DNA from: Firmicutes bacterium UBA1393
Lineage (GTDB): Bacteria > Bacillota > DTU025
Direction of reading: 5' to 3'
DNA length: 32,000 nucleotides
Assembly: GCA_002305255.1 (NCBI GenBank)
Contig: DBQN01000065.1
Span: forward strand, 2,529-34,528
Shown here: positions 4,135-32,000 of the stretch, in pieces
Layout: the number at the start of each line of letters is the position of its first letter
Position numbering within the stretch: the first letter of the stretch is position 1
Notes under the pieces: model-generated
What the model was told of the DNA's origin: nothing
The model's database searches: none
Seen by the model: only the letters and a program-made list of their open reading frames with translations
Made by a program: the position numbers and the translations under genes

Positions 4135-5067
4135 CTAGTTCGCGGCGGCCGCCTGCAGTGTGAGACCGAGCACCTTGGCAGACTGCATCACCGAGAGGAA
4201 CAGAGGAGTGCCCGCCTCCAGCTCGAGCTCGGGATTGGGGCTGAGGAAGCCTCCATCCTTGCCTATCACTGCGAACCTGCGGAGGCTGTCACTGGCTGCT
4301 ACCGTAGCCGCCACGTTGGCCGCGATGGCCGCAGTGTCGACTCCCAGGGTCACCGGAACTGAGTCCATGCCCTCGATGGTCGAGATCTCAACATCGACTC
4401 TGGCCTTCACGCCAGTCTTGGTCGGGCGGACGTTGTCGAGTACCCTGCCCATGACCACCGTGCCCTTTGGCACTACCAGGCGTCCTTCAGCCACGACATC
4501 CTCCATCACGACGAGGCGCACAGCATCGCCCGGACGCGACTTAGATGAGCTGAGCCCTGACTCTATTGCCAATTTGACGAGGGCGCCTTTAGGGAGCAAA
4601 GCGTAGTCCACGTTGGGCTTGCCTCCCGGGATCGTCAGGCTCATCAGCACGTCAAGACGCTGGCCTATGGAGCCCGATCCTCCCGTCCCTAGGATCCTGA
4701 GTTCCGCGTCATCGAGGGCAGGCACTATGGGCCTGTCGACGATGCTTCCGAACACGCTCCACTGTACCGCCTTGAGCTTGAACTTGAGGTTCATGCCGCC
4801 GGCGCGGTCACCCTGGACGAAGTTCCAGCACTGCTCCATCCTCTCGGGAAGGGTACCGGTACCTACCTTCCCGAACACAAGACGCTCTATGATCTCAAGC
4901 CTGTTGACTACCGCACCCTCTTGAATCGACCCGAAAAGCACCTGTTCCATGCCTACAAGTCGCTCAATGGGGCTGACCTGAGCGGCAACATTCATGCCGA
5001 GAGACACGAGTACCACGAGAAGGCAGGACAGAGCCGCTGCCGCGATGTGTGGGAATCCCCTGCGCAT
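4135..5067 (-). CDS. Secreted/periplasmic protein of unknown function
   Basis: 310-aa ORF with GGGAGG (5075-5080) 7 nt upstream of the ATG. The N-terminal hydrophobic signal ends in 'NVAAQ'. Two copies of an 'ERLV..EQ.LFG / ERLVFGKV' motif are followed by a beta-rich C-terminal half ('GDAVRLVVMEDVVAEGRLVVPKGTVVMGRV'). No family recognised. Confidence 0.6.
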   Translation of the reverse strand: MRRGFPHIAAAALSCLLVVLVSLGMNVAAQVSPIERLVGMEQVLFGSIQEGAVVNRLEIIERLVFGKVGTGTLPERMEQCWNFVQGDRAGGMNLKFKLKAVQWSVFGSIVDRPIVPALDDAELRILGTGGSGSIGQRLDVLMSLTIPGGKPNVDYALLPKGALVKLAIESGLSSSKSRPGDAVRLVVMEDVVAEGRLVVPKGTVVMGRVLDNVRPTKTGVKARVDVEISTIEGMDSVPVTLGVDTAAIAANVAATVAASDSLRRFAVIGKDGGFLSPNPELELEAGTPLFLSVMQSAKVLGLTLQAAAAN

Positions 5068-5102
5068 TCAACTACCTCCCAGTGAGCCACGGGCCTTAGG
5101 CC

Positions 5103-6581
5103 TCAGAATCTGATGGTGACCTCGGCCGTAGCAAGGTTCTTTGGCGTTTCGGATGAACCGACTTCCGAGAAATCGATAAGCTTGTAGCCGAGCAAGAGCG
5201 CGGTATCACCCATGAGTTTGTATCCGAAGTCAATTGATGTCACTGTGCGGGTTGCGTCAGCTCCCGACAGGCGGAGGGGTTCGTCGCTGGGCCAGCCGCC
5301 GAGCCCACCCCCGTCGTAGGCGTCGGACTTGGTCCATACCGCCCCGGAGGCGATCAAGTCACGCATGCGCTCGTACCTGTAGCCTGCCTGTAGAAATGCC
5401 GCATCGCCCAACAGGAGTTTGTAATCGATGACCAACGATGCCGTCGTCTGCAGGCTATCCCTCGACGCAGCGGAGCTTGCGCCCCTCTCATACAGCTCGT
5501 AGCCGGCCCTTACCGTCAGGGAGTCACCTGCCACTACGTTGCCGGTGATATCGGGCAGGGAGTATTTCACGTCGACCGACGTGACCGTTTCTTTCACGGC
5601 CTTGCCCGGTTCTGAGGCGGCCTCAGTCACCCTGGTTCCTACCGCGAAGCCGGCTTCATCTCGGTCACCTACGCGGACGCCCACTGCCGCAGACGTCTCA
5701 CGGTTGGACACGGCCTCATCAGTGAAGAAGGCAGCAGACACCTTCAGGATGTCGGCCAGATGCACGTTGGTGGATAGATCGAACCCGCTGCTCTCTGTCT
5801 TCGTAGGGGTCGCGGTCTCCTCGGGCGGGTCAGGCTTTGCCGGCCGTCTCGCCGCCTGGCTCGACAGAGCTACTGCCACGTTGCCTATGGGAGCGGGCAA
5901 CCCCAACTCGAATTGGGGATCAGGCAACGGGGCGGGCGGCTTCACACCCGATGAGAGCTGCGTAAGTATGCGCTCGATATCGCCTACTCCAGCGGCACCG
6001 GGCAACGGTGTCGATGCCGACGCTGCCGCAGTCACAGGCTGCTGTGCGCTGCCGTTTTGAGCGGGTTCCGATGGCACCAACGACAACACCAGGGCCGGCC
6101 CGCCGTTGGCGAGGGCGGCCGTCGACAGATCGAGACGCACCGAGACCGGAGTTCCGAAGCTCTGCCCGAACTCTTGAACCAAACCTGCTAGCAGCGCTGC
6201 CTGGCGCGGCGATACCGAAAGCACGCCGCCGGGGTTGTCATCCAGCCGAAGCGGGCCCTGACCCCCATCACCGTCTTGAGTCATGACCTGAATCACTCTA
6301 GTGACACCCGGGCCACCGATGCGGAGCACTGTGCGCTCGACACTGCTGGTCATCTGCTCGATCGACACGGGGTTGCCTCCGGTGTACAACGTTGCATCGT
6401 CAAGCTCCAACAGACCGCTGAGGCCGAGCTCACGGAGGGCATCGTAGCGCCAGTCGCCGGGATTCACAGGAGCTGACGCGGCGCCGCCTGCGATCACGGC
6501 GCAGGAAACCGATGCAACAACCGCAAGCGCCAAGGCTAACACCACCGCCAGCCCGAACTTGCTGCTGACCTTCGATAACAT
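5103..6581 (-). CDS. Putative outer-membrane beta-barrel protein (possible lipoprotein signal), unknown family
   Basis: ATG at 6581 is preceded by GGAGGTGA and gives a signal peptide 'MLSKVSSKFGLAVVLALALAVVASVSC' (lipobox-compatible 'SVSC'). An SLH-like remnant 'DWRYDALRELGLSGLL' and a P/A-rich middle follow. The C-terminal ~230 aa show an alternating hydrophobic pattern ending in 'TAEVTIRF' (terminal Phe, as in OMP beta-signals). The 98 extra codons of the longest ORF overlap the neighbouring YqgF-like CDS and look non-coding. Confidence 0.6.
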   Translation of the reverse strand: MLSKVSSKFGLAVVLALALAVVASVSCAVIAGGAASAPVNPGDWRYDALRELGLSGLLELDDATLYTGGNPVSIEQMTSSVERTVLRIGGPGVTRVIQVMTQDGDGGQGPLRLDDNPGGVLSVSPRQAALLAGLVQEFGQSFGTPVSVRLDLSTAALANGGPALVLSLVPSEPAQNGSAQQPVTAAASASTPLPGAAGVGDIERILTQLSSGVKPPAPLPDPQFELGLPAPIGNVAVALSSQAARRPAKPDPPEETATPTKTESSGFDLSTNVHLADILKVSAAFFTDEAVSNRETSAAVGVRVGDRDEAGFAVGTRVTEAASEPGKAVKETVTSVDVKYSLPDITGNVVAGDSLTVRAGYELYERGASSAASRDSLQTTASLVIDYKLLLGDAAFLQAGYRYERMRDLIASGAVWTKSDAYDGGGLGGWPSDEPLRLSGADATRTVTSIDFGYKLMGDTALLLGYKLIDFSEVGSSETPKNLATAEVTIRF

Positions 6582-6642
6582 TCGGCGTCCGTCACCTCCG
6601 TTCATCGATTTATGTACCCAGCTATATTCTCCGCATGATGCC

Positions 6643-7056
6643 CTATTCCTGCCCGCCGCGCCGTTGAGCGAAGTACCGAGTGGCCAAAACCTCGGCAACG
6701 TAGTCATCGAAAGGCCGGTCAGGGCTGCGGAGACCGGGAGGAAGGAACCGCGCAATGCCCCTTCCGGGGTTCTCCCTGAGATACCGTTCCCTTCCCTCCA
6801 TGGAAGAGCGATGCTCGTCCACCGTGACCACCGGAACACTGGTGACTTCTCTGAGGCGGCATAGGGTGTCGACACAGGCAGTCCTGTCGCCCACGACTAT
6901 CGTAGTTACCGCGTGTGTCGACATGATGCGGCGTGCGGAGTCGGCAAGCGCAGCAGCAGGCTCAACGCGTCGCGCCAGGAGCCCCCGTGTTGAGCTGACA
7001 ACCGCCATGCCCACCTTGTCCCTTCCGGGGTCGATCGCGAGAACGATCTCTTCTAT
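6643..7056 (-). CDS. YqgF/RuvX-like RNase H-fold nuclease (putative)
   Basis: Blocks 'IVLAIDPGRDKVGMAVV', 'TTIVVGDRT', 'VPVVTVDEHRSSMEGR' and 'DDYVAEVLATRYF' parallel the RuvX/YqgF blocks (DxG..K.iGvAv, ivVG.P, DERlsT.eA, a..iLq.yl). The first canonical start is GTG 7014, which would delete the Asp-containing first strand. An in-frame ATA at 7056 sits 9 nt after GGGAG and 2 codons after an in-frame TGA, so the start is uncertain. Confidence 0.55.
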   Translation of the reverse strand: MEEIVLAIDPGRDKVGMAVVSSTRGLLARRVEPAAALADSARRIMSTHAVTTIVVGDRTACVDTLCRLREVTSVPVVTVDEHRSSMEGRERYLRENPGRGIARFLPPGLRSPDRPFDDYVAEVLATRYFAQRRGGQE

Positions 7057-7084
7057 CGTTGATCACTCCCCAGTGATGCAAATG

Positions 7085-7110
7085 CCCCGGAGAGCCGTGG
7101 CTCTCCGGGG
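7085..7110 (-). terminator. Strong hairpin 3' of the SLH-barrel gene (terminator candidate)
   Basis: Perfect 11-bp inverted repeat CCCCGGAGAGC-CGTG-GCTCTCCGGGG, 17 nt after the stop at 7128-7130, followed on the minus strand by CAUUUGCAU (short, imperfect U-tract). Confidence 0.6.
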
Positions 7111-7127
7111 CATCGTGAGTCCACCGG

Positions 7128-10100
7128 CTAGAACGTGGTCTTCAGAGACAGACCGGCTACGCGCACACCATAGTCGTCAGGTCCACCAGCAGCATACAGC
7201 ACGTTCTTGATGTCGTACTTCAGCGTGAGGCTGGTGTTCTTGTAGAACTTGTGGTTCAGCGCGGCGCCGAACTGCAGGTACTCGCCTGACGGATGCACCG
7301 CCGTCGGAGTCTCGTACGCGCGCGACTCGTAGGACGCGGTTCCGCTCAGCGTGGTGTCAGGACTGAGGTTGAACGTCAGGCCACCGGCCAGTGCCAGACG
7401 AGTCAGGTCGTTGAACTCCTCGTCGTAGCTGGCATGGCTTGTGGGCACGTCGTGAGTCACATCGTAGCCAGCTTCAGCAGTGAGGGTGAGCCTATCCTCG
7501 ATAAGCGGCATGGCCATGTTCAGGCCAGCGCCCCAGATCTGCCACGTCTCAGCGCCGAAGCTCTGCTCCCAACCGCCGCGGAGCTTCAGAGTGTCGCCGC
7601 CGATAGGCGCATCGAGCTTGACATATCCGATGTAGGACATGGCGGGCTCCCAGCTGTCTTCGAAGTGGTTCTTCCAGGTGAAGCCAGCCGATACCGGCAT
7701 GTACTTCAGGTCGAAGCCCAGCTTCGCGACGCCTTCATTCTCCCAGTCCACGATGAACGCGTCGTAGTTGTAGGTTGCGTCAGCGCGGAGGGTCAGCCCG
7801 ATGCCGAGCAGTTGGGCATTGTACTTCACCCCGCCGCCGACCGTTGCGACGTCCTTGGATGCGAAGTCAGCATCACCCTTACGCTGTACCAGACCATTGA
7901 CGACGAACCCGCCGATCGAGTCGGTGACCAGCGTGAGCTTGCTCACCCTGGTATCGGGGGACACGCGGTCGGGATCGCTGCTGGACGTACCGCGGTAGGA
8001 AGGCGCATAGCCCTCGTCCACCTGGACGTGCGACGCCGCGATGTTAACCACGCCGAGCTTGCCGCCGATAGAGAGGTCTCTCGCATACACGAACTCGGTG
8101 GGTTCAGTGCTGAGGAGCTTGCTGTCAAACGCCGACAGCTCTCCACGGGCGCTCCAGGTGTCACTGAGCTTCAGCGATACGTCGGCACCGATGAGGCTCT
8201 CATCCGGATCGTCGCCGCTCGTGTCCTGTGACGGCTCGTCATGCACCTTCACCATGGCGCGCGCGCCAACGGTGATAGCCTCGGTGAGCTGCAACGTTCC
8301 AGCGGCGCCAGCGATGTGCATGTACTCGTAGGTGCTGGCATCGTTGCTGCCGTGCCCGACCTTGGCCACGAAGCCGCTGAGGTCAAGCTTGCCGGCATCA
8401 TGTGTCAACGCAATGCCCTCGATGGCCTTGCTGTTCCATACCTTGGCGCTGGCCTGGTACTTGGTCAGCCCGGCCGGACGAGCGAGCTCGCCAGCGAGGA
8501 TCGTCGTGACACTGTTCGGCGTCACGATGCTCATGTCGAGATCCAGCTTGGGCAGGACGCTGCTTGTGTCGGCAACTCCGAACACATCGGAGAGCAGACC
8601 TATCTGAGCTGTCACCGTAACGCCCGGATCAGGCTGGATGTTGAGCGTCAGCTTCAACTCGTTCTGCATGATAGAAGAGGGTATATACAGATCGTCGTCA
8701 TCGGGATCCGCTACCCTGTTGAACGGGTTCTTGTAGAGATCCGACACCGGAGCACCGGATATCTGCGACATCGCGTTGATATCCTCGAACCTCACCTCGT
8801 TAGAGCCAGTGAGCTTCACGCGGTTCAGCTCGGTCCAGAGGTTGCCGATGCTCGTCTTGTTGGTCGCGATATCAGCCTGCGCGATCTCGGTGTCCCTCTC
8901 CAGCTTGCGCACGCGCTGGGTGATGGGGGCGATCTCCTCGGTTCTGATCGCCGCTATGTCGCGGGCGTTCTGGTCGGCCTTGGCCTCGACCACAGCCAGC
9001 TGAGCCTCGAGATTCGAAACCCGGGCGCTCAATGCGTTGAGTTCCTTCTGGTACTCATCCTTGAGTGCAGCGATGGACGCGACCACCAAGTCGATGCGCG
9101 CTTCGAGATCCTCGCGCAGGGCGATCATGGAGTCGTAGAAGCCCATCTGCATCTCCGCCTTGAGCTGCAACAGGTCGAGATCATGCTGCTCGGCCAGGGC
9201 CTCGAGGGCTCTCTGCCATGCGTCTCTCTCGGCCGCGATGGAGTCGAGGAAGCTCACCTGGAGCTCTGCCCTGAGCTGAGCCAGATCGAGGTCGTGTTTC
9301 TCAGCAAAGGCCTGAAGCGCTCTCTCGCGGGCGTCCCTCTCGGCCGCGATGGAATCATAGAAGCTCATCATGAGTTCGGCCTTCTGCTGAAGCAGGGCTA
9401 CCTCCCAAGTGGCTTCCATGTCGTCGAGCCTCGCGTCGTACGCCGCCTTCATCTCATTGACGGAAGCGGTGTGCATCTCGAGGATCTCGTTACTCTGCGC
9501 CCTAAGCGCGGCCACGAGCTTCTGGTTGAGTTCGTCGGCGGTGGCTGCATTGGCTGCATTGAACTGAGCGATCAATTCAGCCTTCTGTTCGGCCAGGGCC
9601 TGGTCGAAACGCGCCTGGAGCTCGTTGTATCTTGCGTTGAGCTGACTGGTGGAGTTGACCAGCCTCATGTCGATATCGTTGAGCTTGCCGTCGACAACCA
9701 GGGCGGAATCGGCCATCTGGTTGTACACATTGCCGAACCTGGCGTTCGTTTCGGCAGACGACTGAGCCGCCTCGGCCTCAATCTGCGCAAACCGGGCGTC
9801 AACTCCGGCGGCATAGGCCTCGAACTTGCGGTCGACTTCGTCGCGATATGCGTTGAGCGACTCGCGCGCAGCATTGATAATCGCCATGCTGCTGTCGTCA
9901 ATAGCCTTGACCAGCATATCATCGTGACGGGCATCGATAGCAGCGATGATTGCCGCTTCCCTGTCAGCGATGGCCTTCTCAAGGTCAGCCCTGAGGTTGG
10001 CCAGCAGGATGTCGCGGTCAACGTTCGATGCGATAATCGAGTCGTAGAACGCCATCATCACTTCGGCCTTCTGCTGGAGCAGGGCCAACTCGATCTTGGA

Positions 10101-11063
10101 ATCGAGTTCTGCCAGGGCAGCCTCGCGCGCCGCTCTCTCCTCAGCGGCGTGAACAGCTAGCAGCGTGTTGATTGCCGCTTCATAGTCGGGGGCGGACTCG
10201 ACCGGCGTGGCACCGGTTGTCGATATCGTGAGCGCCTCCAACTTCCTGGCGAGCTCAAGGCTGATCTCCTGGTTCTGCTCTTCGGCAGCCTGCGCTTCCT
10301 CGTACAGCGCACGCCTCAGAGCCTCAAGGCGAGCATCGAAGTTGTCGTGGTCTGCCGCGAGCAACTTGATCTGCCCTTCGAGGTTCGCCACGGCTGCCTG
10401 CCATGCAGCGTTGCTCTCTGCTACTGCATCTGCAACCAGCTTCTCGCAACCGGGAAGCGTGGCCACTGACTGCTGCACTTCGGCACCCACAGGAGTGGTG
10501 CAGGACGCGAAATGTGCCTCATTTGCAGCTCTGACAGCCTCTATGGCTGCCCAGAGCTGGGCATGCTCGGCCTTGTTGGCTTCCGTCAGATCATCCACGC
10601 GCGCGAGCAGAGCAGAGAGCCTATCGTCAAACTGCTCCCACTGCGCCTCCGACATGCCGGCGATCTTCTCGGCGATCACTTGCTCGAGTATGGTGGCATC
10701 CGGCGAAGCCACAGGCTGAAGCACCACCCCGTCGGCTGGGCTGGCACTTGAGTCGGGAGCCTGCGTGCCTGAGACCTTGGCGTCAAGCTCGCCTACAGTC
10801 TCAGCGAGACTGCGGATGTCCCTGTCGAGGTACTCCAGGGCCCGGGCGATCATGATCGCCACCTCGTACCTGGTGGCCTGGTTCTTGCCCTGGAAGGTAC
10901 CATCAGGATAGCCCTCGACGATTCCCAGAGCCGCTAGGAGGTTCACGGCGTCCAACGCCCAGTGGTAATCGGGCACGTCTGAGAAAGGCGTGCTCGCCGT
11001 TACTGGGAGCGCCATCATGATCACCATGAGAGCACTCACTAGTATGGCCAGGAATTTCTTCAT
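7128..11063 (-). CDS. SLH-domain / long coiled-coil / C-terminal beta-barrel outer-membrane tether (OmpM/SlpA-like)
   Basis: 1311 aa with SD AAGGGGGG upstream and signal peptide 'MKKFLAILVSALMVIMMALPVTAS'. One SLH domain is present ('FSDVPDYHWALDAVNLLAALGIVEGYPDGTFQGKNQATRYEVAIMIARAL', about 10824-10991). About 650 aa of A/E/L/Q/D-rich heptad-like sequence follow (aa ~85-750). The last ~560 aa have an alternating beta pattern with aromatic girdle residues and end in 'GLSLKTTF'. Confidence 0.85.
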   Translation of the reverse strand: MKKFLAILVSALMVIMMALPVTASTPFSDVPDYHWALDAVNLLAALGIVEGYPDGTFQGKNQATRYEVAIMIARALEYLDRDIRSLAETVGELDAKVSGTQAPDSSASPADGVVLQPVASPDATILEQVIAEKIAGMSEAQWEQFDDRLSALLARVDDLTEANKAEHAQLWAAIEAVRAANEAHFASCTTPVGAEVQQSVATLPGCEKLVADAVAESNAAWQAAVANLEGQIKLLAADHDNFDARLEALRRALYEEAQAAEEQNQEISLELARKLEALTISTTGATPVESAPDYEAAINTLLAVHAAEERAAREAALAELDSKIELALLQQKAEVMMAFYDSIIASNVDRDILLANLRADLEKAIADREAAIIAAIDARHDDMLVKAIDDSSMAIINAARESLNAYRDEVDRKFEAYAAGVDARFAQIEAEAAQSSAETNARFGNVYNQMADSALVVDGKLNDIDMRLVNSTSQLNARYNELQARFDQALAEQKAELIAQFNAANAATADELNQKLVAALRAQSNEILEMHTASVNEMKAAYDARLDDMEATWEVALLQQKAELMMSFYDSIAAERDARERALQAFAEKHDLDLAQLRAELQVSFLDSIAAERDAWQRALEALAEQHDLDLLQLKAEMQMGFYDSMIALREDLEARIDLVVASIAALKDEYQKELNALSARVSNLEAQLAVVEAKADQNARDIAAIRTEEIAPITQRVRKLERDTEIAQADIATNKTSIGNLWTELNRVKLTGSNEVRFEDINAMSQISGAPVSDLYKNPFNRVADPDDDDLYIPSSIMQNELKLTLNIQPDPGVTVTAQIGLLSDVFGVADTSSVLPKLDLDMSIVTPNSVTTILAGELARPAGLTKYQASAKVWNSKAIEGIALTHDAGKLDLSGFVAKVGHGSNDASTYEYMHIAGAAGTLQLTEAITVGARAMVKVHDEPSQDTSGDDPDESLIGADVSLKLSDTWSARGELSAFDSKLLSTEPTEFVYARDLSIGGKLGVVNIAASHVQVDEGYAPSYRGTSSSDPDRVSPDTRVSKLTLVTDSIGGFVVNGLVQRKGDADFASKDVATVGGGVKYNAQLLGIGLTLRADATYNYDAFIVDWENEGVAKLGFDLKYMPVSAGFTWKNHFEDSWEPAMSYIGYVKLDAPIGGDTLKLRGGWEQSFGAETWQIWGAGLNMAMPLIEDRLTLTAEAGYDVTHDVPTSHASYDEEFNDLTRLALAGGLTFNLSPDTTLSGTASYESRAYETPTAVHPSGEYLQFGAALNHKFYKNTSLTLKYDIKNVLYAAGGPDDYGVRVAGLSLKTTF
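9084..9380 (-). repeat. Intragenic tandem 111-nt (37-aa) repeats in the coiled-coil region
   Basis: Unit 1 is aa 562-598 'AELMMSFYDSIAAERDARERALQAFAEKHDLDLAQLR' and unit 2 is aa 599-635 'AELQVSFLDSIAAERDAWQRALEALAEQHDLDLLQLK'. A partial third unit reads 'AEMQMGFYDSMIALREDLEAR'. DNA copies share strings such as ctctcggccgcgatgga. A more distant copy, 'LALLQQKAEVMMAFYDSI', lies at aa ~326-343 (about 10035-10088). Confidence 0.7.
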
Positions 11064-11342: not shown

Positions 11343-12698
11343 CTATTCAGCTATGAGCCTTATGGATGCGGAGGTGCTTGCGCGCCATATGTCAGTACCT
11401 GCCACAGCCTTCACCGTCTTCACTGCCCTGGAGTTGATCACCGCGACGATGGCGTTTGAGAATTCAGAGACGCTTAGAAGTGTCCCGATCTTGCCTTCCT
11501 CGTCGGAAGGCATTCCCTCGGCAATGAGAATGCTGTTGACCTGCTGCACGAGGGCAAGCAGGCTGGCCTGGACGCGGTCGGCGCCGGCGGCCCCGTCTAT
11601 CAGCGCAGACGCTATGACCTGGCCCTCTGAGTAGATCTTCTTGTCTGGATACACATGAAGCGATACCATCAGCGGCTCACCGCTCCAGGTGTTCACCGGA
11701 GATATGGCCCTGAGGACCACCCTATCAGACGACTCGTCGATCTTCTGGAAGGCGGCGAGCACATTTGCCTCTTCAAAGCTGAGGGTGAACTGATCGCCGT
11801 CGTCCCGGGCCGAGCGGGCCCCCCTACTCTGCGCCACGTCGTTTACTCTCAGAAGGAACGCGTTAACCTGCTCCTGGACGACCTGGGCAGGCTGTGAGCA
11901 GTCGATAATGGCTCCGAGCACCACCTCGTCAGCGCGGAAGATCACCTTGCCCCACATGGACAGCTGCCCTGCTTCCCACAGCAGTTCAGCACTGCGTTGT
12001 GTAGTCTCAGTCAGGGTACTCTCAAGCGTGGCGACTTCCTTCGCCAGCATGTCCCGGGTCTGAGTCAAGGCTTCGACCCGCTCAGTCTGTACTCTCTGCT
12101 CCTCTTCCAGCGCAGCAATATCCACCCGCGCGTTCTCAAGGTCGGCCGCGGCTGCCTCAAGCTGCGCGGACACGCCATCAAGATCTGACTCCATCTTCTG
12201 AAGCCTGCTGGATGCCTCAACCAGCCTGCCCTCTGAGTCTTTCAGGCGAGACTGGAGCATCGACAACTCATCGAGAGCGAGACCTCGCTCCTCAGATACG
12301 CGTGCTAGCTCGGCAACCGCACGATCATATTCGGACTGGAGATCCTCTCGCTCCTTGGCCATCTTGTCAACCTGCATTGACAGCTCATCTACCTGAGCTC
12401 TCTTAGCTTCCAGATCGGAAGTTGCCGTGGCCAGCGAGTCCTGAATCTCCTTTATCTCGAACAGTGCCGTCCTCACATTGTCGGAGGCGAGGGAAAGCAG
12501 AATGATGGAGCAGCCTGCGATCATCACGCCGGTCATGATAGTGACAATCATAGACGTGTACCTGGGGCGCAGGCCGAACATGGACAGCCTCTTTCGACCG
12601 ACCTTCATTCCGATGCGGTCACCAACGTAGGCTATGACTCCTCCTGCAATCGCCAGCACGACTATGAGGGGAAAACCATACACACGCCATCCCTCCAC
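11343..12698 (-). CDS. DUF3084-like membrane-anchored coiled-coil protein
   Basis: 451 aa. Two N-terminal TM helices flank the basic loop 'GDRIGMKVGRKRLSMFGLRPRYTS', the signature I associate with DUF3084. An ~170-aa heptad-rich segment follows ('LEAKRAQVDELSMQVDKMAKEREDLQSEYDRAVAELARV...'), then a ~200-aa globular C-terminus. The start is 16 nt after the lptB stop. Confidence 0.6.
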   Translation of the reverse strand: MEGWRVYGFPLIVVLAIAGGVIAYVGDRIGMKVGRKRLSMFGLRPRYTSMIVTIMTGVMIAGCSIILLSLASDNVRTALFEIKEIQDSLATATSDLEAKRAQVDELSMQVDKMAKEREDLQSEYDRAVAELARVSEERGLALDELSMLQSRLKDSEGRLVEASSRLQKMESDLDGVSAQLEAAAADLENARVDIAALEEEQRVQTERVEALTQTRDMLAKEVATLESTLTETTQRSAELLWEAGQLSMWGKVIFRADEVVLGAIIDCSQPAQVVQEQVNAFLLRVNDVAQSRGARSARDDGDQFTLSFEEANVLAAFQKIDESSDRVVLRAISPVNTWSGEPLMVSLHVYPDKKIYSEGQVIASALIDGAAGADRVQASLLALVQQVNSILIAEGMPSDEEGKIGTLLSVSEFSNAIVAVINSRAVKTVKAVAGTDIWRASTSASIRLIAE

Positions 12699-14889: not shown

Positions 14890-14936
14890 GACGCGACCAC
14901 CTCGTCCTACCGGGCACAATGCCCTTGGACGGAATT

Positions 14937-25194: not shown

Positions 25195-25286
25195 CAGTCT
25201 CCCTCCCATGATTGGCCCCAACCGCCGCATATCACAGCGTACAGAGGCGCTGATCGGCAAAATGATTGTCCACAAGCATTCCGTGT

Positions 25287-27221
25287 TTAGTTCGCTTCCG
25301 GTGAGTTGGTTCCTGCCATTGCCCGCGGACCCCGCGGAGCCGAGTCTAGCCAGGCTGCGATCTGATCCAGAATATACTGACGCACGCGCGAGCCGATTAG
25401 TTTCACGAGCATGTCACCGCTTTGAGGAATATCGGCGCCGGGCATCACCGCATCCTCAAGCTGCAGCTCAATGTCACCCAGTACGCCACGGGCCGTGAGG
25501 AGGACATCGTCACCCTCCACATGCTCGGCCAGGGTCAGGGCGAACTCAGGCTCCACGCCCGGCTCAAGCAGCGCCTGCCCGCTAACCACCGCAAATGTCT
25601 GGCCCGACACGAACAGCTCGCCTGCACCCAGGCCGATTCTGCCGCTGAACACGGGCTTTTTGAGGCTCCCGAGAACGCGAACCTCCGATCCTGCGTCGAT
25701 GCGAGCCCACGATTCCTCTCGCACAACCGTAAGCCCCTCTCCCATCCCGACCGTGAGGTCAACGGCGAGGTCGGGGATGTTGGGTACCGCGGAGAAGCCC
25801 GCAGTCACTGCGTCTATCGCGCCCTCAGCCAGCGTCACCCTGCCCGAGAGCTTTCCATCGGAGTAGCCGACATCTGCGTCGAGTCTCGCTTTCACCACCT
25901 GGTGGACAAGGTCAACATCGTCGGCCACCAGCCGCAACTCGTCGGGCCGCCCCTCCAGGTGCACAGAACCATTGGAGAACTCCGCACTGAGGTCGACGCG
26001 TCCGAGGCTTGTCCGCCCGCTAGAGACGGCATATGACAGATCCGCCGTACCGCGAACTCCGGTGAACTGACCGTCGAAGTCATCGAGGAGATCCGCAGTT
26101 ATCTCACCGTCTGTGAGTCGCACAGAGCCAACCGCACCGCGCCGATCAGCGCGGAGGTGTAGGTTCCAGTTGATCCATCCGTGTGCCTTCGATGCCCACT
26201 CCACGATCTGGTTCGCCGCAGGTGAAGCCGCAAGGGTGTTGAGAACGCGGTCTAGGTCGGTGCGGCCGCCACGCACGACTGCTGTGGCCGCCCCATCCGT
26301 GTAGTCGACATCGGCGCCCATGGTCCAGTCTCTCACCGACACCGAACCCCAGTCTAGCTCGGCGATCTTGACCTCGCCTGTAGCCTTAACTTGAGGCTTG
26401 CCCTCGTGAAGAGCAGCCTCGAGCTCTCCGGCGAACTCGATCTCCGCCTTGCCGTCGGGCGAGGTGGCACGCAACCTGAGCTGGTCGGCAGCCATCGCGT
26501 CAAGTGAAAGCCTACCGCCGAGTTCCAGATCATCGACGAGCCAAGCTCGGAAGTCTATCGATGCCACGGAGACTGCCCGCGAGTCAAGTGGAGCCGACAG
26601 GTCGATAAGGGCCGAACCTGCGAGACTGACACTCTCAAGGGCGACATCGGCACCCTCAACGTACAACGTATCCCCGTCCAGCCTGATCTCGGCTCGGCTG
26701 ATTCTCAGAGGGCCCGCACCGTCTGTCACGATGACGCAGTCAATCAGGCCGACAGGCGCCCTCGGGCCGCCTTCGGAGGCCGCCGAGGTCGCGCCCGCCC
26801 TGCCGTTGGGCCTGGTGGCCTTGGAGTCGCCCCTAGGCTTCGCCCGGCCGCGCAAGATGGACTCTGCTAATTCGGTAAGCTGCGATTGGCTGCCCCTCAA
26901 TCCAAGAAGGTCGATCCGAACAACGCTGGCCAACGGATCGACCCGTCGGGCAAGGAGATCTGCAAGGTCATACGTGACGACGGCCTCCTCGATACTGAGC
27001 CCGCCGTCGATGACGACATCTTTCAGTTTCAGCTGCCTTCCCTCGACTATGGCAACATCTGTCACGCTCACGGGCACACCACCCAGAAGCGTCGAAAGCA
27101 CTGACTCAGCTGCCACTGAGCCGAGCCATGCCCTATTGGTCACGACAAACGCCCCGGCCGCAACGGCGAGCAGGAGCAGTACTATCCATACGACAAGGGA
27201 GCGCTTCAAGAGCATCACCAT
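25287..27221 (-). CDS. tamB: TamB/AsmA-like translocation-and-assembly-module protein (short form)
   Basis: An N-terminal TM 'LLKRSLVVWIVLLLLAVAAGAFVV' is followed by long repetitive beta-rich sequence. A DUF490-like C-terminal pattern is present: 'LGSLKKPVFSGRIGLGAGELFVSGQTFAVVSGQALLEPGVEPEFALTLAEHVEGDDVLLTARGVLGDIELQL'. The position directly upstream of bamA is the common tamB-bamA arrangement. Start is taken as ATG 27221; the longest ORF starts at GTG 27296. Confidence 0.65.
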   Translation of the reverse strand: MVMLLKRSLVVWIVLLLLAVAAGAFVVTNRAWLGSVAAESVLSTLLGGVPVSVTDVAIVEGRQLKLKDVVIDGGLSIEEAVVTYDLADLLARRVDPLASVVRIDLLGLRGSQSQLTELAESILRGRAKPRGDSKATRPNGRAGATSAASEGGPRAPVGLIDCVIVTDGAGPLRISRAEIRLDGDTLYVEGADVALESVSLAGSALIDLSAPLDSRAVSVASIDFRAWLVDDLELGGRLSLDAMAADQLRLRATSPDGKAEIEFAGELEAALHEGKPQVKATGEVKIAELDWGSVSVRDWTMGADVDYTDGAATAVVRGGRTDLDRVLNTLAASPAANQIVEWASKAHGWINWNLHLRADRRGAVGSVRLTDGEITADLLDDFDGQFTGVRGTADLSYAVSSGRTSLGRVDLSAEFSNGSVHLEGRPDELRLVADDVDLVHQVVKARLDADVGYSDGKLSGRVTLAEGAIDAVTAGFSAVPNIPDLAVDLTVGMGEGLTVVREESWARIDAGSEVRVLGSLKKPVFSGRIGLGAGELFVSGQTFAVVSGQALLEPGVEPEFALTLAEHVEGDDVLLTARGVLGDIELQLEDAVMPGADIPQSGDMLVKLIGSRVRQYILDQIAAWLDSAPRGPRAMAGTNSPEAN

Positions 27222-27337
27222 GATGCCTAATACGCGATGACTAACAACATCCCTGCTTGCGTATGGAAGTGAAATGGATGCATTGCGGGTATACACTGGT
27301 AAGACTGGCCATTCAGGCTATGCCATGACTCCACTCT

Positions 27338-29182
27338 TCAGTCGGTAGCGCTGATCTCCATATCGACCCATGTCGTACCCTCGATGAACCACTCCGTGAG
27401 CAACCTGGCGCTCGGCAGCTCTGTGCCATGTAAGCCGTGGTCGGCGTCACCGTCCTCTTCGGAATCGCCCGCCTTGTCCCTGGCATCGGGGTTACTCTGC
27501 GACGTGCTCACCGCCACTCCACTCAGGAGGTCGGTATGCGGATAGTCCTCGCCATCCAGATAGGGCTCATCATAGTCATAGAAGTAGTCTTCCATCTGCA
27601 CCACTATCTCGTCGCCCCTTGGAGCACGTCCCAGTTCTGCCAGCAGCTCGTCGAGGTCCATGTAAGCGAGGGCGTCCTCGTCTGGTTCATATGACTCGCC
27701 CTCATCGTCGTCTCCCACACCTCCGCCTGTCACCATGAAGGCGACCGGGCCTTCGGGCGTATCGTCGGGGATCTCCACCTCCACGATGCGCGTGGTGAGT
27801 GGGCCGCGGAATGGCCTGAGGGTTACCTCGATTCTGGCGACGCCTCCGGGTGCCACGACTGGCTCAAGGGGTATCGCACTGAGTATCCTTGCGGTTCGCC
27901 TGCCAGCGCTCACGGTGACGTTCATACTCAGCGACTTCACCACAGCCTGCTCCACGGCATTGCCCACAACCAGCTCGAGCGCTCTGCGCGGAACCTCGGC
28001 GACAGCGTATGAAATGTCGGAAGCGCTCCACACCGTGTCGGACCTGCGCAGAGGTTCATGCCCTTCGAGCTCGATCACATAGTCGATGCTGGCGGTTCCT
28101 TGTCCGAGCCTATCAATGGCTTGGTCCGCTCCGCCCAGGGCGACTGTGAAGAACAAGTCTGCCACCAGCAGTTCAGAGCCGGATACGGCCGATTGCACAC
28201 GCACGGGCTTTCCGCCCGCATCATGTACGGCCTCGACAATCACTGGAATCATGTGTGCGCGGGCCCCAGCCTTACCCGCGGAACCGTACAGTCTATCTTG
28301 AGTGAACGCACCGATGTTCTCAAGGGATGATGCCACTTTGAAGGGTACGCTGTCACTTCTGACCACTGTGTGAACAGTGGCGCCGGCGGCCTGCAGGTCT
28401 ACGGCACCGAGAGAAAGGACCGGGTGACCGAAGGCAAGAAATCTGCCTTCGTCGACATGTGTCACAGACCCGTACACTGACACCTCGATGTCGCCCTCTG
28501 CCAACTGCATTGCCACCATGGCCCCGGGCACCAGTCGGTAATCTGAAGCCACCGCGTCACGGGCAGCGGTTCCCAGCGATGCCGACGCAGGAAGCACCCT
28601 TATTCCCCTGAACGATACTGCCTCTGACAGCCTCTCAATGGCCCTCTGTGACGCGCCTGACACATACATCGTCGCGCCTGCGGCGAGAGGCGGCGCGCCG
28701 GCTGCCCGCGTGCTCGCGACAGAGTCAGTGCCGATGTCATCGTAGTCGAGCATTCTGAGCATGTCGGCGATGGGCGTCACTCCTGCGATGAAGTGGTCGC
28801 TTCCTGGGAATACGTATGCAATCGCGCCGATGAGCTTCCCATCGATGTACACAGGGCTTCCGCTCATGCCTTCTGCCACTCCGCCCGCGGCCTCAATGTT
28901 CTTGCCTGACGCGCGCACGAGAATCATGCTTCCCGGACTATCGCCCCGAGGCGATACCGCAAGGATCTCGACATCGAACGGCTCCGGTTTCACGCCTTTG
29001 AACACTGTCAGCCCGTACCCCTTCATGCCGGTCGATAGATCAGTCGTAGCTATGGTGGCGGTGTACGCAGCTGCTGCCGGCCAGTGGCCGGCGGCGCCGA
29101 CGAACGCTATGATGGCAAGGATCACCAGGGTGATACGAAGTGTGCTGTTGCGCACGGCGGAAACGCCCCTTCCCTGACGCAT
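27338..29182 (-). CDS. Peptidase S55 (SpoIVB-type) domain protein with a long non-SpoIVB C-terminal extension and acidic tail
   Basis: Signal/anchor 'LRITLVILAIIAFVGAAGHWPAAAA', then 'GMKGYGLTVFKGVKPEPFDVEILAV...GGVAEGMSGSPVYIDGKLIGAIAYVF'. The latter matches the catalytic-Ser block of SpoIVB ('GGIVQGMSGSPII.NGK.IGAVTHVF'). I recognised no PDZ-like segment. About 400 further aa end in D/E/Y-rich 'DDDEGESYEPDEDALAYMDLDELL...EDYFYDYDEPYLDGEDY'. Confidence 0.65.
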   Translation of the reverse strand: MRQGRGVSAVRNSTLRITLVILAIIAFVGAAGHWPAAAAYTATIATTDLSTGMKGYGLTVFKGVKPEPFDVEILAVSPRGDSPGSMILVRASGKNIEAAGGVAEGMSGSPVYIDGKLIGAIAYVFPGSDHFIAGVTPIADMLRMLDYDDIGTDSVASTRAAGAPPLAAGATMYVSGASQRAIERLSEAVSFRGIRVLPASASLGTAARDAVASDYRLVPGAMVAMQLAEGDIEVSVYGSVTHVDEGRFLAFGHPVLSLGAVDLQAAGATVHTVVRSDSVPFKVASSLENIGAFTQDRLYGSAGKAGARAHMIPVIVEAVHDAGGKPVRVQSAVSGSELLVADLFFTVALGGADQAIDRLGQGTASIDYVIELEGHEPLRRSDTVWSASDISYAVAEVPRRALELVVGNAVEQAVVKSLSMNVTVSAGRRTARILSAIPLEPVVAPGGVARIEVTLRPFRGPLTTRIVEVEIPDDTPEGPVAFMVTGGGVGDDDEGESYEPDEDALAYMDLDELLAELGRAPRGDEIVVQMEDYFYDYDEPYLDGEDYPHTDLLSGVAVSTSQSNPDARDKAGDSEEDGDADHGLHGTELPSARLLTEWFIEGTTWVDMEISATD

Positions 29183-29195
29183 GGCGTCTCTTTAA

Positions 29196-30167
29196 TCATA
29201 CACCTGCAGCGACATTTGTCACTTGCGGAATGTCGCACTCGGCCATGTACAGGAGTCCCCTGGCCGCCGCAAGTTGCGGATCATCTGCCAATCGGCACCC
29301 CACCCCGGCATGCTCTGCCACATGCGCCGCGAACATGTGCTGCAGCGCTCCCCCGCCCGCCAGAATCACCTCGTCGCATCCCCACCTTGACCGTGCAGCA
29401 CCGAGCGAATGCCCCACTGACCTGGCGAGGCTTTCCACTGCGGCATCGATGAGCACATCCGGTACCTCGGCGTCGGTTGGAAAACACGTGCCCACATGGC
29501 AGCCGCGCACACGAATGCCTCGCTCGCCCGGGCGTAGATCGTTTCTGGCTTCCCTTGCCCTCCTCGCCTCCGAGAAACCGACCCTGATCCCCAGCTCCTC
29601 CCTAATCCTTCGCTGCACGTCTCGGTCGACACTGCTCATCCCTGACCGCTCGCGCCCACTCCACACCACCGCTCCCATCTGAATCGTGGCGATGTGCACG
29701 CGCTCGGCGCCTACATCGGTGACGATGGTGTCACGGTCGATGGCACCGGCACCCATACACACCGCCAACGGCGACTGCACGATGGCGACGGGCTTCAGCC
29801 CGGCGTCTGACGCAAGCTGGAACATGGTTCGTATGTCGAGCACCGTAGGAGCCGCAGGTGCGAGGAGCACCGCCCTGGGCACCGCAAGCCTCTTTCTGCC
29901 GCACAGCTCCCGTGCTACGGCACTGAGTACATAGAGAGCCAACGGGCGCCGGAGTGAGTCGCCCCACGCGCCAGTGGCCGCCAGATGGTAACGAGCCGGG
30001 TCGCGCAAGAGCATCGCCATGGCGCCCGTGCCCCATCCCGCTGCGTAGCCCGTGCTCCTCTCCACCGCCACCACGGAAGGTGCAGAAATGACGACTCCGC
30101 GTCCGGGAGCAACTGCAACCACGTTCGCGGAGCCCAGATCAATGCCTATGTCAAATCGCCGCCGCAT
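29196..30167 (-). CDS. Divergent MreB/Mbl-family actin-like protein (nucleotide-binding motifs partly degenerate)
   Basis: ATG 30167 (GGAGGG 6 nt upstream) gives 'MRRRFDIGIDLGSANVVAVAPGRGVVISAPSVVAV' (MreB phosphate-1 block). 'EVILAGGGALQHM' and 'DDPQLAAARG' are retained. The canonical 'DIGGGTTE' block reads 'DVGAERVH'. The position after spoIIID matches spoIIID-mbl/mreB synteny. Confidence 0.7.
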   Translation of the reverse strand: MRRRFDIGIDLGSANVVAVAPGRGVVISAPSVVAVERSTGYAAGWGTGAMAMLLRDPARYHLAATGAWGDSLRRPLALYVLSAVARELCGRKRLAVPRAVLLAPAAPTVLDIRTMFQLASDAGLKPVAIVQSPLAVCMGAGAIDRDTIVTDVGAERVHIATIQMGAVVWSGRERSGMSSVDRDVQRRIREELGIRVGFSEARRAREARNDLRPGERGIRVRGCHVGTCFPTDAEVPDVLIDAAVESLARSVGHSLGAARSRWGCDEVILAGGGALQHMFAAHVAEHAGVGCRLADDPQLAAARGLLYMAECDIPQVTNVAAGV

Positions 30168-30186
30168 CGAGTTCCCTCCGCCGCGC

Positions 30187-30444
30187 TTACGGTATCCTCC
30201 GAGTCCGGTACTTGCGGCGAGTGGCCTCACCGCCCCTTATGTGCCGCTCGGCCTTGTTCTGGTCGAGGATCACTTTGACCTCCATCGCAAGCTGTTTGCT
30301 TATTGATGGCAATCTCTCGGTCACGTCCTTGTGGACGGTGCTCTTGCTGACATTGAACAGGCGGGCCGTCTGCCTGACCGTCGCCTTTGTCTGAATCATG
30401 TGATCGGTTATCTCCAGAACTCGCCGGCGAATGTGATCCCTCAT
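30187..30444 (-). CDS. spoIIID: Stage III sporulation protein D (mother-cell transcription factor SpoIIID)
   Basis: 85 aa. 'IQTKATVRQTARLFNVSKSTVHKDVTERLPSISKQLAMEVKVILDQNKAERHIRGGEATRRKY' is near-identical in pattern to the SpoIIID HTH and the 'RHLRGGEAT' basic region. Confidence 0.95.
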   Translation of the reverse strand: MRDHIRRRVLEITDHMIQTKATVRQTARLFNVSKSTVHKDVTERLPSISKQLAMEVKVILDQNKAERHIRGGEATRRKYRTRRIP

Positions 30445-30455
30445 GCAGCGCCCGG

Positions 30456-30506
30456 CCTCCCCCCTGCCGTTTGCTAGATATGTATTCCAGCAGGGGAGGA
30501 TTATTC
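30456..30506 (-). promoter_or_regulatory. Sigma-E-like promoter candidate for spoIIID embedded in an inverted repeat whose downstream arm contains the SD
   Basis: Minus strand reads GAATAAT (30506-30500; fits the recalled B. subtilis sigma-E -35 'ZHATAXX' 7/7), 13 nt, then AATACATA (30486-30479; 5/8 to 'CATACAHT'). Arms CCTCCCCTGC (30499-30490) and GCAGGGGGGAGG (30467-30456, the spoIIID SD) can pair, with a 2-G bulge, around a 22-nt loop holding the -10. Confidence 0.35.
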
Positions 30507-30521
30507 GCGCTACAGTCGGGT

Positions 30522-31118
30522 TCAGATTCGGGTGCTGGGGTCCTGCGGCTCGCCTCTCAACATCAGTTTGAAGTCGATCACCGACTTCGCGGAGCCCCCC
30601 GGTGCCATGCCGATGCAGTCGCCTGCCAGCACCTGCTGCCCCTGTGCCACCGATACGGTGTCGAGCGAGGCATAGTATGTTTCGAACTCGTACGAGTGTT
30701 TGATACGCACACCATAGCCCTGCTCAAGGGCAGTCACCTCGCTTACCTCGCCGTCAGCCGCAGCGCTGATTGCGCTCTCGGCCGGCACCTCTAGCGCGAT
30801 ACCGTCTCTATAGCGCCATTCACGTCGGAGCGGGTCACGGTACCATCCGAAGGAACCGACGACTGTTCCGTCTGCAGGCCAGGAGAACACCGGGGGTGGT
30901 TCCTGCTCACTGGCATCGCTCTCTGCCGGCGGTTCCTCGATCACGGCCGTCACCGGCTGCGCCCCCGGGTCGGGGACACTCAACGTTACTCTGGGCCAAT
31001 ATGCTTCGTAGGCCAGCCTCAGGACGATCCCGATACCGATGCACGCCAGGGCAGCCAGGGCCAGGCCCAGCCACTTTCTGCCCAGCTTCCATCCTCTCCA
31101 ACTTCTGAGCTTCACCAT
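30522..31118 (-). CDS. Membrane-anchored degenerate LytM/M23-domain protein, SpoIIQ-like by position
   Basis: TM anchor 'WLGLALAALACIGIGIVLRLA', then an M23-fold pattern 'YRDGIALEVPAESAISAAADGEVSEV...GYGVRIKHSYEFETYYASLDTVSVAQGQQVLAGDCIG'. The Zn/catalytic positions are substituted (H.GID -> RDGIA; YAHL -> YASL; HLHFE -> IDFKL). It lies between spoIID and spoIIID, as clostridial spoIIQ does. Confidence 0.6.
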   Translation of the reverse strand: MVKLRSWRGWKLGRKWLGLALAALACIGIGIVLRLAYEAYWPRVTLSVPDPGAQPVTAVIEEPPAESDASEQEPPPVFSWPADGTVVGSFGWYRDPLRREWRYRDGIALEVPAESAISAAADGEVSEVTALEQGYGVRIKHSYEFETYYASLDTVSVAQGQQVLAGDCIGMAPGGSAKSVIDFKLMLRGEPQDPSTRI

Positions 31119-31142
31119 GCTCGATCACCTCAGGTGGTATTA

Positions 31143-32000
31143 TTACCCGCCTTGAGATGATGATACGCGCACCAGCGCCACGCCCCGGTAGTAATGGGTG
31201 AGGATTTGATGGAAGGACCAGCCCCTGATGGCATACGCGCGGGCGCCCCACTGGCACATGCCCACGCCATGACCGTACCCGATGGTAGAGAAGTTGACTA
31301 GGTCGCCTCCGCTTGACACTGACATAGCAGTCGACCTGAGGGAGAGAGCCTTCCTGATATCCGTGGCGTTGACGTTTGTTCCGAACACCGACAGAGTCTT
31401 GGCCCTGTTTGTTGTGGTTGTCGAAGACACACGCACACCCTGCGCCAGTGCCGGTACAGCACCGCCGCTCCAGTAGGAACTGAGGGCGGCGATGAGATCA
31501 GACTGACGCACGGAGCGCTGCTCAACCTGAGCATAACCATGCTCAGCACAGACGCAGGCAGTCGGAACAAGGTATGGCACGCTTCGGCCCCATACCGCCG
31601 CCGCGTCTTCAGTGGCCCCACCGCAGCACGCGTGATATACCGCATCAATGAGCTTGCCTCCGTAATGGAGCACCATTCCGTGGGTCGCCGCTACCGCCTG
31701 TACGACTCTGACGATGTTTCGCACGTAGTCTGTGCTGCCCCATTTGCGCACCAGGTCATCGCGGGAACTCCATGCCTGGCAGCAGCCTGGATCAGAGCAC
31801 ATCAGCGCACCCATGTGGCCTGGCTTCGCCGGAGCCCCCGGGGTCTTCTGATCTTCCTCCAGCTTGCGCATGGTGTATGTGCGAGCCGCCACTGCCTGTG
31901 CTTTCAGTGCCTCCGGTTCGAAGGACGCCGGCATCTCTGACGCAACTACTCCGACAAGGTAATCCTCAAGAGCCATGGTCAGCACCCGGCCCGTGGTCTT
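31143..32000 (-). CDS. spoIID: Stage II sporulation protein D (SpoIID lytic transglycosylase family), 5'-partial at window edge
   Basis: 'LEDYLVGVVASEMPASFEPEALKAQAVAARTY', 'CSDPGCCQAW', 'VLHYGGKLIDAVYHACCGGATEDAAAVWG..VPYL' and 'GYGHGVGMCQWGA' are SpoIID-domain hallmarks. The frame stays open upstream to position 32000 ('KTTGRVLTMALEDY'), so the N-terminus lies outside the window. Confidence 0.9.
   Translation of the reverse strand, partial: KTTGRVLTMALEDYLVGVVASEMPASFEPEALKAQAVAARTYTMRKLEEDQKTPGAPAKPGHMGALMCSDPGCCQAWSSRDDLVRKWGSTDYVRNIVRVVQAVAATHGMVLHYGGKLIDAVYHACCGGATEDAAAVWGRSVPYLVPTACVCAEHGYAQVEQRSVRQSDLIAALSSYWSGGAVPALAQGVRVSSTTTTNRAKTLSVFGTNVNATDIRKALSLRSTAMSVSSGGDLVNFSTIGYGHGVGMCQWGARAYAIRGWSFHQILTHYYRGVALVRVSSSQGG

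Follow-up and report, generated by a model that had tools for sequence, protein, structure and literature searches.

The 32,000-nucleotide stretch of DNA from Firmicutes bacterium UBA1393 that was analyzed here (contig DBQN01000065.1, positions 2,529 to 34,528; hereafter the window) carries a block of sporulation genes, consisting of spoIID, a gene for an M23-domain protein, spoIIID and an mreB-like gene, followed on the same strand by a cluster for outer membrane (OM) biogenesis that begins with a gene for an S55-domain protein and a tamB-like gene and continues through bamA, skp and lpt genes to the gene for a tether with a surface-layer homology (SLH) domain. With a probability of roughly 80%, the window is an ancestral cell-envelope supercluster of diderm Bacillota, modular in its organization, in which the two blocks are neighbors by shared ancestry. 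A murA-spoIID-spoIIQ-spoIIID-mbl block would be followed by the OM cluster, as in all diderm Firmicute lineages examined, and the two would abut here because the flagellar rod and ring genes that lie between mbl and the S55 gene have been lost in this lineage. The adjacency would thus reflect common descent and not a functional coupling of OM assembly to engulfment. A previous interpretation made from the nucleotides alone (the sequence-only reading) had presented the head-to-tail fusion of the two blocks as special to this organism. That view does not hold, as the OM cluster also trails spoIIID-mbl in Negativicutes, Halanaerobiales and Limnochordia, and the arrangement is a compacted example of a known conserved locus type.

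The gene order was surveyed by tblastn against 84 loci, using as queries the proteins of the window together with MurA, MreB, the S55 protein, TamB and BamA of Halanaerobium hydrogeniformans. The order murA-[spoIID-M23-spoIIID]-mbl-[0-7 kb]-S55-tamB-bamA-skp, with the ABC (ATP-binding cassette) ATPase of the mla set placed between S55 and tamB in Negativicutes, recurs in Negativicutes, Halanaerobiales, a metagenome-assembled genome (MAG) of Limnochordia and many Bacillota MAGs. Named carriers are Pelosinus, Propionispora, Veillonella, Dialister, Megasphaera, Phascolarctobacterium, Halanaerobiaceae, H. hydrogeniformans and the Limnochordia MAG. H. hydrogeniformans has murA...mbl-S55-tamB-bamA-skp...lpxD without spo genes, and in the non-sporulating Veillonellaceae and Acidaminococcaceae murA lies immediately before mbl, so that in non-sporulators murA-mbl-S55-tamB-bamA is kept and the spo genes are gone. 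The mbl and S55 genes of the Limnochordia locus are 6 kb apart, and the interval encodes FlgF, FlgG, FlgA, FlgH, FlgI, a rod-binding FlgJ-like protein and an NAGPA-domain protein. The usual genes of this spacer are flgF-G-A-H-I-J, none of which is present in the window.

These observations agree with earlier descriptions of parts of the locus. Antunes et al. 2016 placed flagellar genes inside the conserved OM locus (PMC5007114), murA-spoIID-spoIIID-mbl was inferred to be ancestral in Firmicutes by Garcia et al. 2021 (PMC8136486), and spoIID-spoIIQ-spoIIID operons were described in a preprint by Galperin et al. 2022 (10.1101/2022.02.25.481979). According to PMC11456536, Taib et al. 2020 broadened the OM cluster of diderm Firmicutes to include Limnochordia. 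Two Atribacterota loci (L010 and L022) carry murA-mreB-S55 and a Deinococcales contig (L072) carries mreB-S55, so the envelope portion of this gene order may predate sporulation.

A juxtaposition of this kind could also be produced by an assembly chimera, a caveat already raised in the sequence-only reading, or by a recent horizontal insertion of a Gram-negative OM island beside sporulation genes. Nothing was found in favor of either, and the contig is no chimera: the identical order is found on separately assembled contigs from ENA, Logan, JGI and NCBI that derive from different samples. By exact sequence the proteins belong to 'Firmicutes bacterium ADurb.Bin506', an uncultured lineage of anaerobic digesters. 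The core order is also kept in four related species-level lineages, with S55 protein identities of 73%, 56%, 51% and 46%. The GC content stays between 0.57 and 0.64, the GC skew runs monotonically across the junction, and there is no break in the window. As the synteny is moreover common to all three diderm Firmicute classes, the probability left for a chimera or an insertion is negligible. On the identical public contig (L001), the region upstream of spoIID contains murA with a textbook terminator and, further ahead, wecB, tagO, a dCMP deaminase gene, upp, rpiB, a low-molecular-weight phosphatase gene and sua5. Such a wecB-tagO-...-sua5 stretch before murA is typical Firmicutes synteny.

NCBI lists the organism as an unclassified member of the Bacillota. 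Together with this label, the presence of sporulation genes beside genes for BamA, TamB, Skp, Lpt proteins and an SLH porin supports the proposal of the sequence-only reading that the source is a diderm member of the endospore lineage of Bacillota. SpoIIID, BamA and LptF/G-LptD share somewhat more identity with the group to which the Limnochordia MAG belongs than with Negativicutes or Halanaerobiales. In a neighbor-joining tree of S55 proteins, however, the window sequence sits on a basal, unresolved long branch, and Limnochordia is a plausible candidate class only.

The gene at the boundary of the two blocks (27338..29182, minus strand) encodes a predicted exported serine-peptidase-like protein of 605-614 residues with a partial match to the S55 family (PF05580, E 8.7e-11). 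The sequence-only reading had grouped it with the sporulation genes, which would be correct if it encoded a true SpoIVB-type signaling protease and the sporulation block reached as far as tamB. The Pfam match and the serine motif GMSGSP, which is invariant in the family, are in line with this, as is a match of the family profile to the SpoIVB structure 9LNF (E 1e-12). However, the alignment with 9LNF covers 79 residues and only the Ser-bearing half of the domain, the protein has no PDZ domain, and it scores 42 bits with the SpoIVB equivalog model, for which the cutoff is 305. Residues D222 and H244, which are also invariant, follow the serine and hint at a permuted protease domain. A homologue search gave 1152 matches, and a scan of one genome per species found the family in at least 599 genomes. 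They occur in non-sporulating Negativicutes (Veillonella, Dialister, Megasphaera and Phascolarctobacterium), in Halanaerobium and the Limnochordia MAG, and in Atribacterota, Acidobacteriota, Planctomycetota, Gemmatimonadota, Latescibacterota, Zixibacteria, Obscuribacterales and Deinococcales. Because the homologues span many diderm phyla, non-sporulators included, the family is best described as diderm-wide, predicted exported serine-peptidase-like proteins, and a SpoIVB function in the window is very unlikely. The S55 gene effectively heads the OM block and not the sporulation block. The family at the head of the cluster seems to be unstudied, and the supplements of Antunes 2016 and of the V. 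parvula Mla paper make no mention of S55, SpoIVB, MreB or spoIIID.

Intergenic distances were taken from the gene calls of L001. The spacers measure 24 nt between spoIID and the M23 gene, 77 nt between the M23 gene and spoIIID, 19 nt between spoIIID and the mreB-like gene, and 40 nt between the latter and the S55 gene (13 nt if the S55 ATG is placed at 29182). The S55 and tamB-like genes are separated by 128 nt (27210-27337), tamB-like and bamA by 77 nt, bamA and skp by 215 nt, skp and the lptF/G::lptD gene by 37 nt, and the latter and lptC by 42 nt. The lptC and lptA genes share a 4-nt overlap, and 93 nt follow between lptA and the gene for a 771-residue protein.

A putative spoIIID promoter, GAATAAT-N12-GAATACATATCTA, is located at 30475..30506 on the minus strand. 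Footprinting of 16 spoIIID loci showed that most share ACATAT or GCATAA, a spacer of about 13-15 nt and GCATATACAT, and a downstream block resembling CATATACAT is present in nearly all 16, from Negativicutes, Halanaerobiaceae and Limnochordia. The site resembles a promoter of the sigma-E class. Phylogenetic footprinting was more informative here than consensus scans, as scans for sigma-E, sigma-K, sigma-F and sigma-G promoters with up to two mismatches gave matches at background level only. Two further sites are sigma-A-like, each with 10 of 12 consensus positions, and they are the only sigma-70-like sites of this quality on the minus strand. The first, GTGACA-16-TATGAT (29195..29222, minus strand), is 39 nt upstream of the S55 start, lies inside the mreB-like coding sequence at its 3' end and is conserved in the related locus L085. 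The second, TAGCCA-17-TATAAT (23373..23401, minus strand), lies upstream of skp, and its sequence TGTATAAT is conserved in non-coding DNA in five of five relatives. The sole strong terminator-like element in the window is a perfect GC-rich hairpin of 15 bp (7081..7114, minus strand), 14 nt past the SLH gene.

Judged by these elements, a modular transcription pattern is most likely. The spoIID-spoIIQ pair would be transcribed from a sporulation promoter after the murA terminator, and spoIIID with the degenerate mbl from the conserved sigma-E-like promoter. S55-tamB-bamA would use the sigma-A-like promoter at the mbl 3' end, skp-lptFG::lptD-lptC-lptA and the following genes the conserved TATAAT promoter, and the SLH tether gene would form a separate unit closed by the strong hairpin. 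Independent transcription of the OM genes is also indicated by two relatives. In L086 (11974-12957) and L088 (3353-4342) a gene for an NAD-dependent epimerase/dehydratase lies on the opposite strand between the S55 and tamB-like genes, and tamB-bamA therefore needs its own promoter there. The 128-nt gap of the window may be the scar of a loss of this epimerase gene. Upstream of the tamB-like gene, CCATACGCAA occurs both in the window (about 27240-27260, minus strand) and in L086 (about 13095-13105), and L087, the 73% relative, has CCATACACAT. The element resembles a sigma-E or sigma-K -10 sequence but lacks a matching -35, and it is unaligned in some relatives.

Several observations weigh against the modular, ancestral supercluster. 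The sequence-only reading had named a strong terminator as evidence that would speak against cotranscription, and a search of about 24 kb of the coding strand, from spoIID through the SLH gene and so including the interval from spoIIID to the OM genes, found no intrinsic terminator. As no terminator intervenes, sporulation-time read-through from spoIIID into the S55 gene is physically possible, and so are long transcripts. The promoter-like site upstream of S55 lies in coding sequence, and its conservation may therefore partly reflect constraint on the protein. In addition, lpxA, lpxC, lpxD and kds, which are typical of the published cluster, are not found within the 32 kb; the true lpx genes may be located elsewhere in the genome.

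The sequence-only reading had gone further and proposed that read-through from a mother-cell promoter would link OM biogenesis to engulfment or forespore envelope formation. In this alternative, transcription from a sigma-E-type spoIIID promoter would pass through the mbl-like gene and reach S55-tamB-bamA, perhaps even later genes, and the OM of the forespore would be built or primed during engulfment. The conserved sporulation-type promoter, the spacers of 19 nt and 13-40 nt and the lack of a terminator hairpin up to bamA are consistent with such read-through, and the genes would have moved closer together when the flg genes and the epimerase gene of the relatives were lost. There is also a precedent in B. 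subtilis, where mbl is expressed in sporulation from a sigma-E promoter ahead of usd-spoIIID and, for vegetative growth, from a sigma-A promoter in the spoIIID-mbl interval (PMC4474612). On the other hand, the adjacency persists in non-sporulators, and 2-7 kb or a terminator separates spoIIID from the S55 gene in other lineages. The sigma-A-like promoters before S55 and skp and the opposite-strand gene of L086 and L088 likewise speak against the OM genes depending on spoIIID transcription. Moreover, in Acetonema longum sporulation leaves the expression of the OM biogenesis genes and of tamB unchanged, mature spores lack BamA and LptD, and OM proteins appear at germination, when the OM is built (PMC13018214). 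Of the earlier proposal, the conserved promoter and the open path without a terminator stand, whereas neither read-through as the route by which the OM genes are expressed nor the link to engulfment is supported. Coupling in this general form is improbable. Marginally less probable again is a version confined to the flagella-less, compacted locus, in which the spoIIID promoter would transcribe a sporulation-only Mbl and continue into S55-tamB-bamA, giving a burst of OM assembly at the engulfing membrane. If it were true, OM construction would start in engulfment, and not at germination as in Acetonema. Such a regulatory link would matter for how diderm spores regain their OM, but the present evidence does not favor it. 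The preferred reading remains the ancestral supercluster with separately transcribed modules.

According to the list of open reading frames (ORFs), 21 successive minus-strand genes extend from spoIID at the right edge of the 32-kb window to recD2 at the left. Domain identities were assigned by Pfam and NCBIfam scans, with the curated cutoffs of NCBIfam. The gene train described by the sequence-only reading holds in order and strand, and most of its names were confirmed by these scans. The tamB-like and lpxB-like names gained support at the level of their families, the names YqgF-like, outer-membrane protein and secreted protein have weak backing, and no family match was obtained for the protein paired with the ABC ATPase.

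Within the sporulation block, spoIID (31143..32000, minus strand) is recognized by TIGR02870 (271 bits, cutoff 234.75). Its 5' end is truncated at the window edge, and the complete gene on L001, downstream of murA and its terminator, encodes 340 residues. SpoIIID (30187..30444, minus strand) scores 128.9 bits with TIGR02844 (cutoff 111.5) and matches PF12116 (E 1e-37). The M23/LytM protein encoded between them at the spoIIQ position (30522..31118, minus strand; PF01551, E 2.2e-15) scores 26.9 with the Bacillus-type SpoIIQ model, for which the cutoff is 250, and is a putative SpoIIQ by its spoIID-M23-spoIIID synteny. On inspection by eye, its HxxxD and HxH catalytic residues seem to be missing; the clostridial-type SpoIIQ of Negativicutes and Limnochordia is apparently intact (Galperin et al., 10.1101/2022.02.25.481979).

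The protein at the mbl position is a very divergent MreB/Mbl paralogue (29196..30167, minus strand; PF06723, 104 bits). It reaches 94.9 bits with the NCBIfam MreB model (cutoff 293) and matches MreB entries of the Protein Data Bank (PDB) with an E value of 1e-21. Its identity is 23-24% to canonical Mbl and about 24% to Halanaerobium Mbl, for which the values are 41-60% in most other diderm Bacillota and lower in a few, and the Mbl-position protein of L053, the closest relative in GTDB, is intermediate at 34%. The phosphate-2 motif reads DVGAER and not DxGGGT. The gene may encode a relaxed or sporulation-only MreB paralogue, and as a candidate sporulation-specific Mbl it is a testable item.

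The OM block continues after the S55 gene with the tamB-like gene (25287..27209, minus strand; 640 residues). The protein by itself has no Pfam match, a sequence search against the PDB was empty, and BLASTP against TamB of H. hydrogeniformans was not significant. Three of four members of its family match PF04357 (best E 3.9e-7), and its AlphaFold2 model, of moderate confidence with a pLDDT (predicted local distance difference test) of 59, matches TamB in the TamAB complexes 9xdd_B and 9xdc_B, the beta-taco fragment 5vtg, and LPD-3. Based on the model and the family matches, the gene is assigned to the TamB/AsmA family, with a predicted N-terminal transmembrane anchor, a beta-taco groove and a DUF490 C terminus. 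At 640 residues the protein is about half as long as the 1479-residue TamB of H. hydrogeniformans. In the relatives L007, L012, L016 and L017, S55 and bamA lie so close together that there is little or no space for tamB.

Next are bamA (23470..25275, minus strand), with an Omp85 match (E 2.4e-47), three POTRA stretches (PF07244) and 225 bits with TIGR03303, and skp/ompH (22865..23329, minus strand; PF03938, E 1e-10). They are followed by an unusual gene (19522..22827, minus strand; PF03739, E 1.6e-88) whose 1101-residue product joins LptF/G to a full-length LptD. In its AlphaFold2 model (pLDDT 76), the N-terminal ~360 residues match LptF/G in Foldseek (E ~1e-14) and the C-terminal ~700 residues match LptDE structures (E ~1e-27, probability 1.0). 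The predicted LptD part consists of an N-terminal beta-jellyroll and a large C-terminal beta-barrel, and Cys526 and Cys1060 are invariant. The fusion is found in 18 protein clusters with lengths of 1086-1110 residues, and similar proteins of 1018-1071 residues occur in Halanaerobium. In the Limnochordia locus LptF/G and LptD are encoded by separate genes, 16 nt apart. An alignment of the linker (residues ~355-410) revealed an Arg-rich (RR) stretch, a hydrophobic stretch and an AxA motif, which together look like a retained Sec signal peptide, and cleavage into two proteins would be the most plausible fate of the product. NCBI annotates the fusion proteins as LptF/LptG permease only. Antunes et al. 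did not find LptD in diderm Firmicutes (PMC5007114), and in some of them it may have been overlooked because of such a fusion.

The remaining Lpt set comprises an LptC-like protein with a transmembrane anchor and an OstA fold (18817..19479, minus strand; weak matches to PF06835 and TIGR04409), an LptA-like protein (18089..18820, minus strand; PF03968, E 6.9e-14) and, further downstream, lptB (12715..13443, minus strand; TIGR04406, 331 bits, cutoff 240). An LptE partner was not identified. Between lptA and lptB lies first the gene for a 771-residue membrane protein (15680..17995, minus strand), which has no family assignment and no match in Pfam, NCBIfam or the PDB. From its hydropathy it consists of one N-terminal transmembrane segment, an Ala-rich helical exported domain of about 560 residues and C-terminal transmembrane segments. 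An FtsX-like topology was considered for it and is unsupported. Homologues at the same place are found in L007, L017, L085 and L087. The adjoining ABC ATPase gene (14937..15857, minus strand; PF00005, E 2.2e-33) probably starts near 15701. The LpxB-related GT-B glycosyltransferase (13654..14919, minus strand) has no direct family match. Its family of about 300 representatives includes members that match LpxB (TIGR00215) and TIGR03492 below the cutoffs, and one homologue is a tandem with LpxB. The gene belongs to a paralogue family and is not the LpxB equivalog.

Downstream of lptB, a DUF3084/COG4372 membrane coiled-coil protein (11343..12698, minus strand; PF11283, E 3.3e-31) precedes the SlpA/OmpM-type tether of 1311 residues (7128..11063, minus strand; SLH domain PF00395, E 1.3e-13). 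The tether has the SLH domain, a predicted coiled coil of ~680 residues and a predicted C-terminal beta-barrel that ends in Phe, with a beta-signal-like terminus ...KTTF. The coiled coil contains internal repeats such as LLQQKAE.MM.FYDSI. It greatly exceeds the stalks described so far, and such a length seems hard to reconcile with the short TamB if the two proteins have to cross the same periplasm. The last genes of the train encode a YqgF/RuvX-like remnant (6643..7014, minus strand; a weak match to PF03652, E 0.014), a putative outer-membrane protein with a signal peptide and a C-terminal Phe (5103..6590, minus strand) and a 310-residue exported protein with a signal peptide and faint TrbI/TraM matches (4135..5067, minus strand). 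Neither of the latter two gave a usable match in Pfam, NCBIfam or the PDB. Domain scans also identified MetK and RecD2 past this block, and in the longest-ORF calls metK and recD2 overlap by 46 nt (2710-2755). The 216 nt upstream of metK (3919-4134) have no match to an S-adenosylmethionine (SAM) riboswitch in Rfam, Rfam and tRNA scans of the whole window were empty, and the window contains no protease of the COG0750 type.

This locus shows in compact form the arrangement on which the idea of a diderm ancestor of Firmicutes is based. The OM cluster occupies the site where monoderm Firmicutes keep just mbl together with flhO and flhP, two flagellar-rod genes, and loss of the OM can therefore be read as a deletion at a single site. 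The sporulation genes lie within what would be an older envelope locus, since murA-mreB-S55 is present also in Atribacterota. The S55-type protease family at the cluster head, spread over diderm phyla, is a further testable item.

Compared with known systems, the sporulation block shares with the Firmicutes murA-spoIID-spoIIQ-spoIIID-mbl cluster its gene order, the upstream murA with its terminator and the position of an mbl-like gene immediately downstream, and it shares with B. subtilis usd-spoIIID-mbl a sporulation-type promoter on spoIIID. In contrast to B. subtilis, the spacer between spoIIID and the mbl-like gene has only 19 nt, too short to hold the sigma-A promoter that B. subtilis has between the two genes. 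At this position a terminator or a spacer of more than 100 nt is present in some relatives. The window protein also differs from canonical Mbl by its identity of ~24% and its degenerate nucleotide-binding motif, and the M23 protein differs from that of the known cluster in apparently lacking the catalytic His residues. With B. subtilis SpoIVB (MEROPS S55) the S55 protein has in common GMSGSP and, of the protease domain, the half that bears the Ser. Unlike SpoIVB, it has no PDZ domain, falls short of the equivalog model and has ~480 additional C-terminal residues, its candidate catalytic D222 and H244 follow the Ser instead of preceding it, and its family extends into non-sporulating diderm phyla.

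With the OM cluster of Antunes 2016 the window shares the tamB-bamA-skp triad in order, the location of all genes on one strand, lptB, a single lptF/G, two OstA-domain proteins of ~200 residues and the SLH-domain OmpM-type tether. Of the accessory genes COG4372, COG0816 and COG0750 that are conserved in the cluster of Antunes 2016, it clearly shares DUF3084/COG4372, the weakly matching YqgF/RuvX-like remnant is a candidate COG0816-like gene, and COG0750 is absent. It differs in lacking msbA besides lpxA, lpxC, lpxD and kds, with the LpxB-related paralogue only, and in the absence of flgA, flgH, flgI, mlaEFD and tolC from the stretch. Its TamB has half the length, LptD is present and fused to LptF/G, and the coiled coil of the tether is very long. 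Relative to the E. coli Lpt machine (LptB2FGC-LptA-LptDE), the LptF/G fold, the LptD jellyroll and barrel, the LptC-like and LptA-like proteins and LptB are shared. The window has a single LptF/G, presumably acting as a homodimer by analogy with the one proposed for A. longum (PMC13018214), and this LptF/G is translationally fused to LptD through the signal-peptide-like linker. Finally, the SLH/coiled-coil/barrel architecture matches the D. radiodurans SlpA and OmpM tethers (PMC9388160, PMC10628300), and compared with the 28-nm stalk of SlpA the predicted stalk of ~680 residues would be several times longer if it forms one continuous coiled coil.

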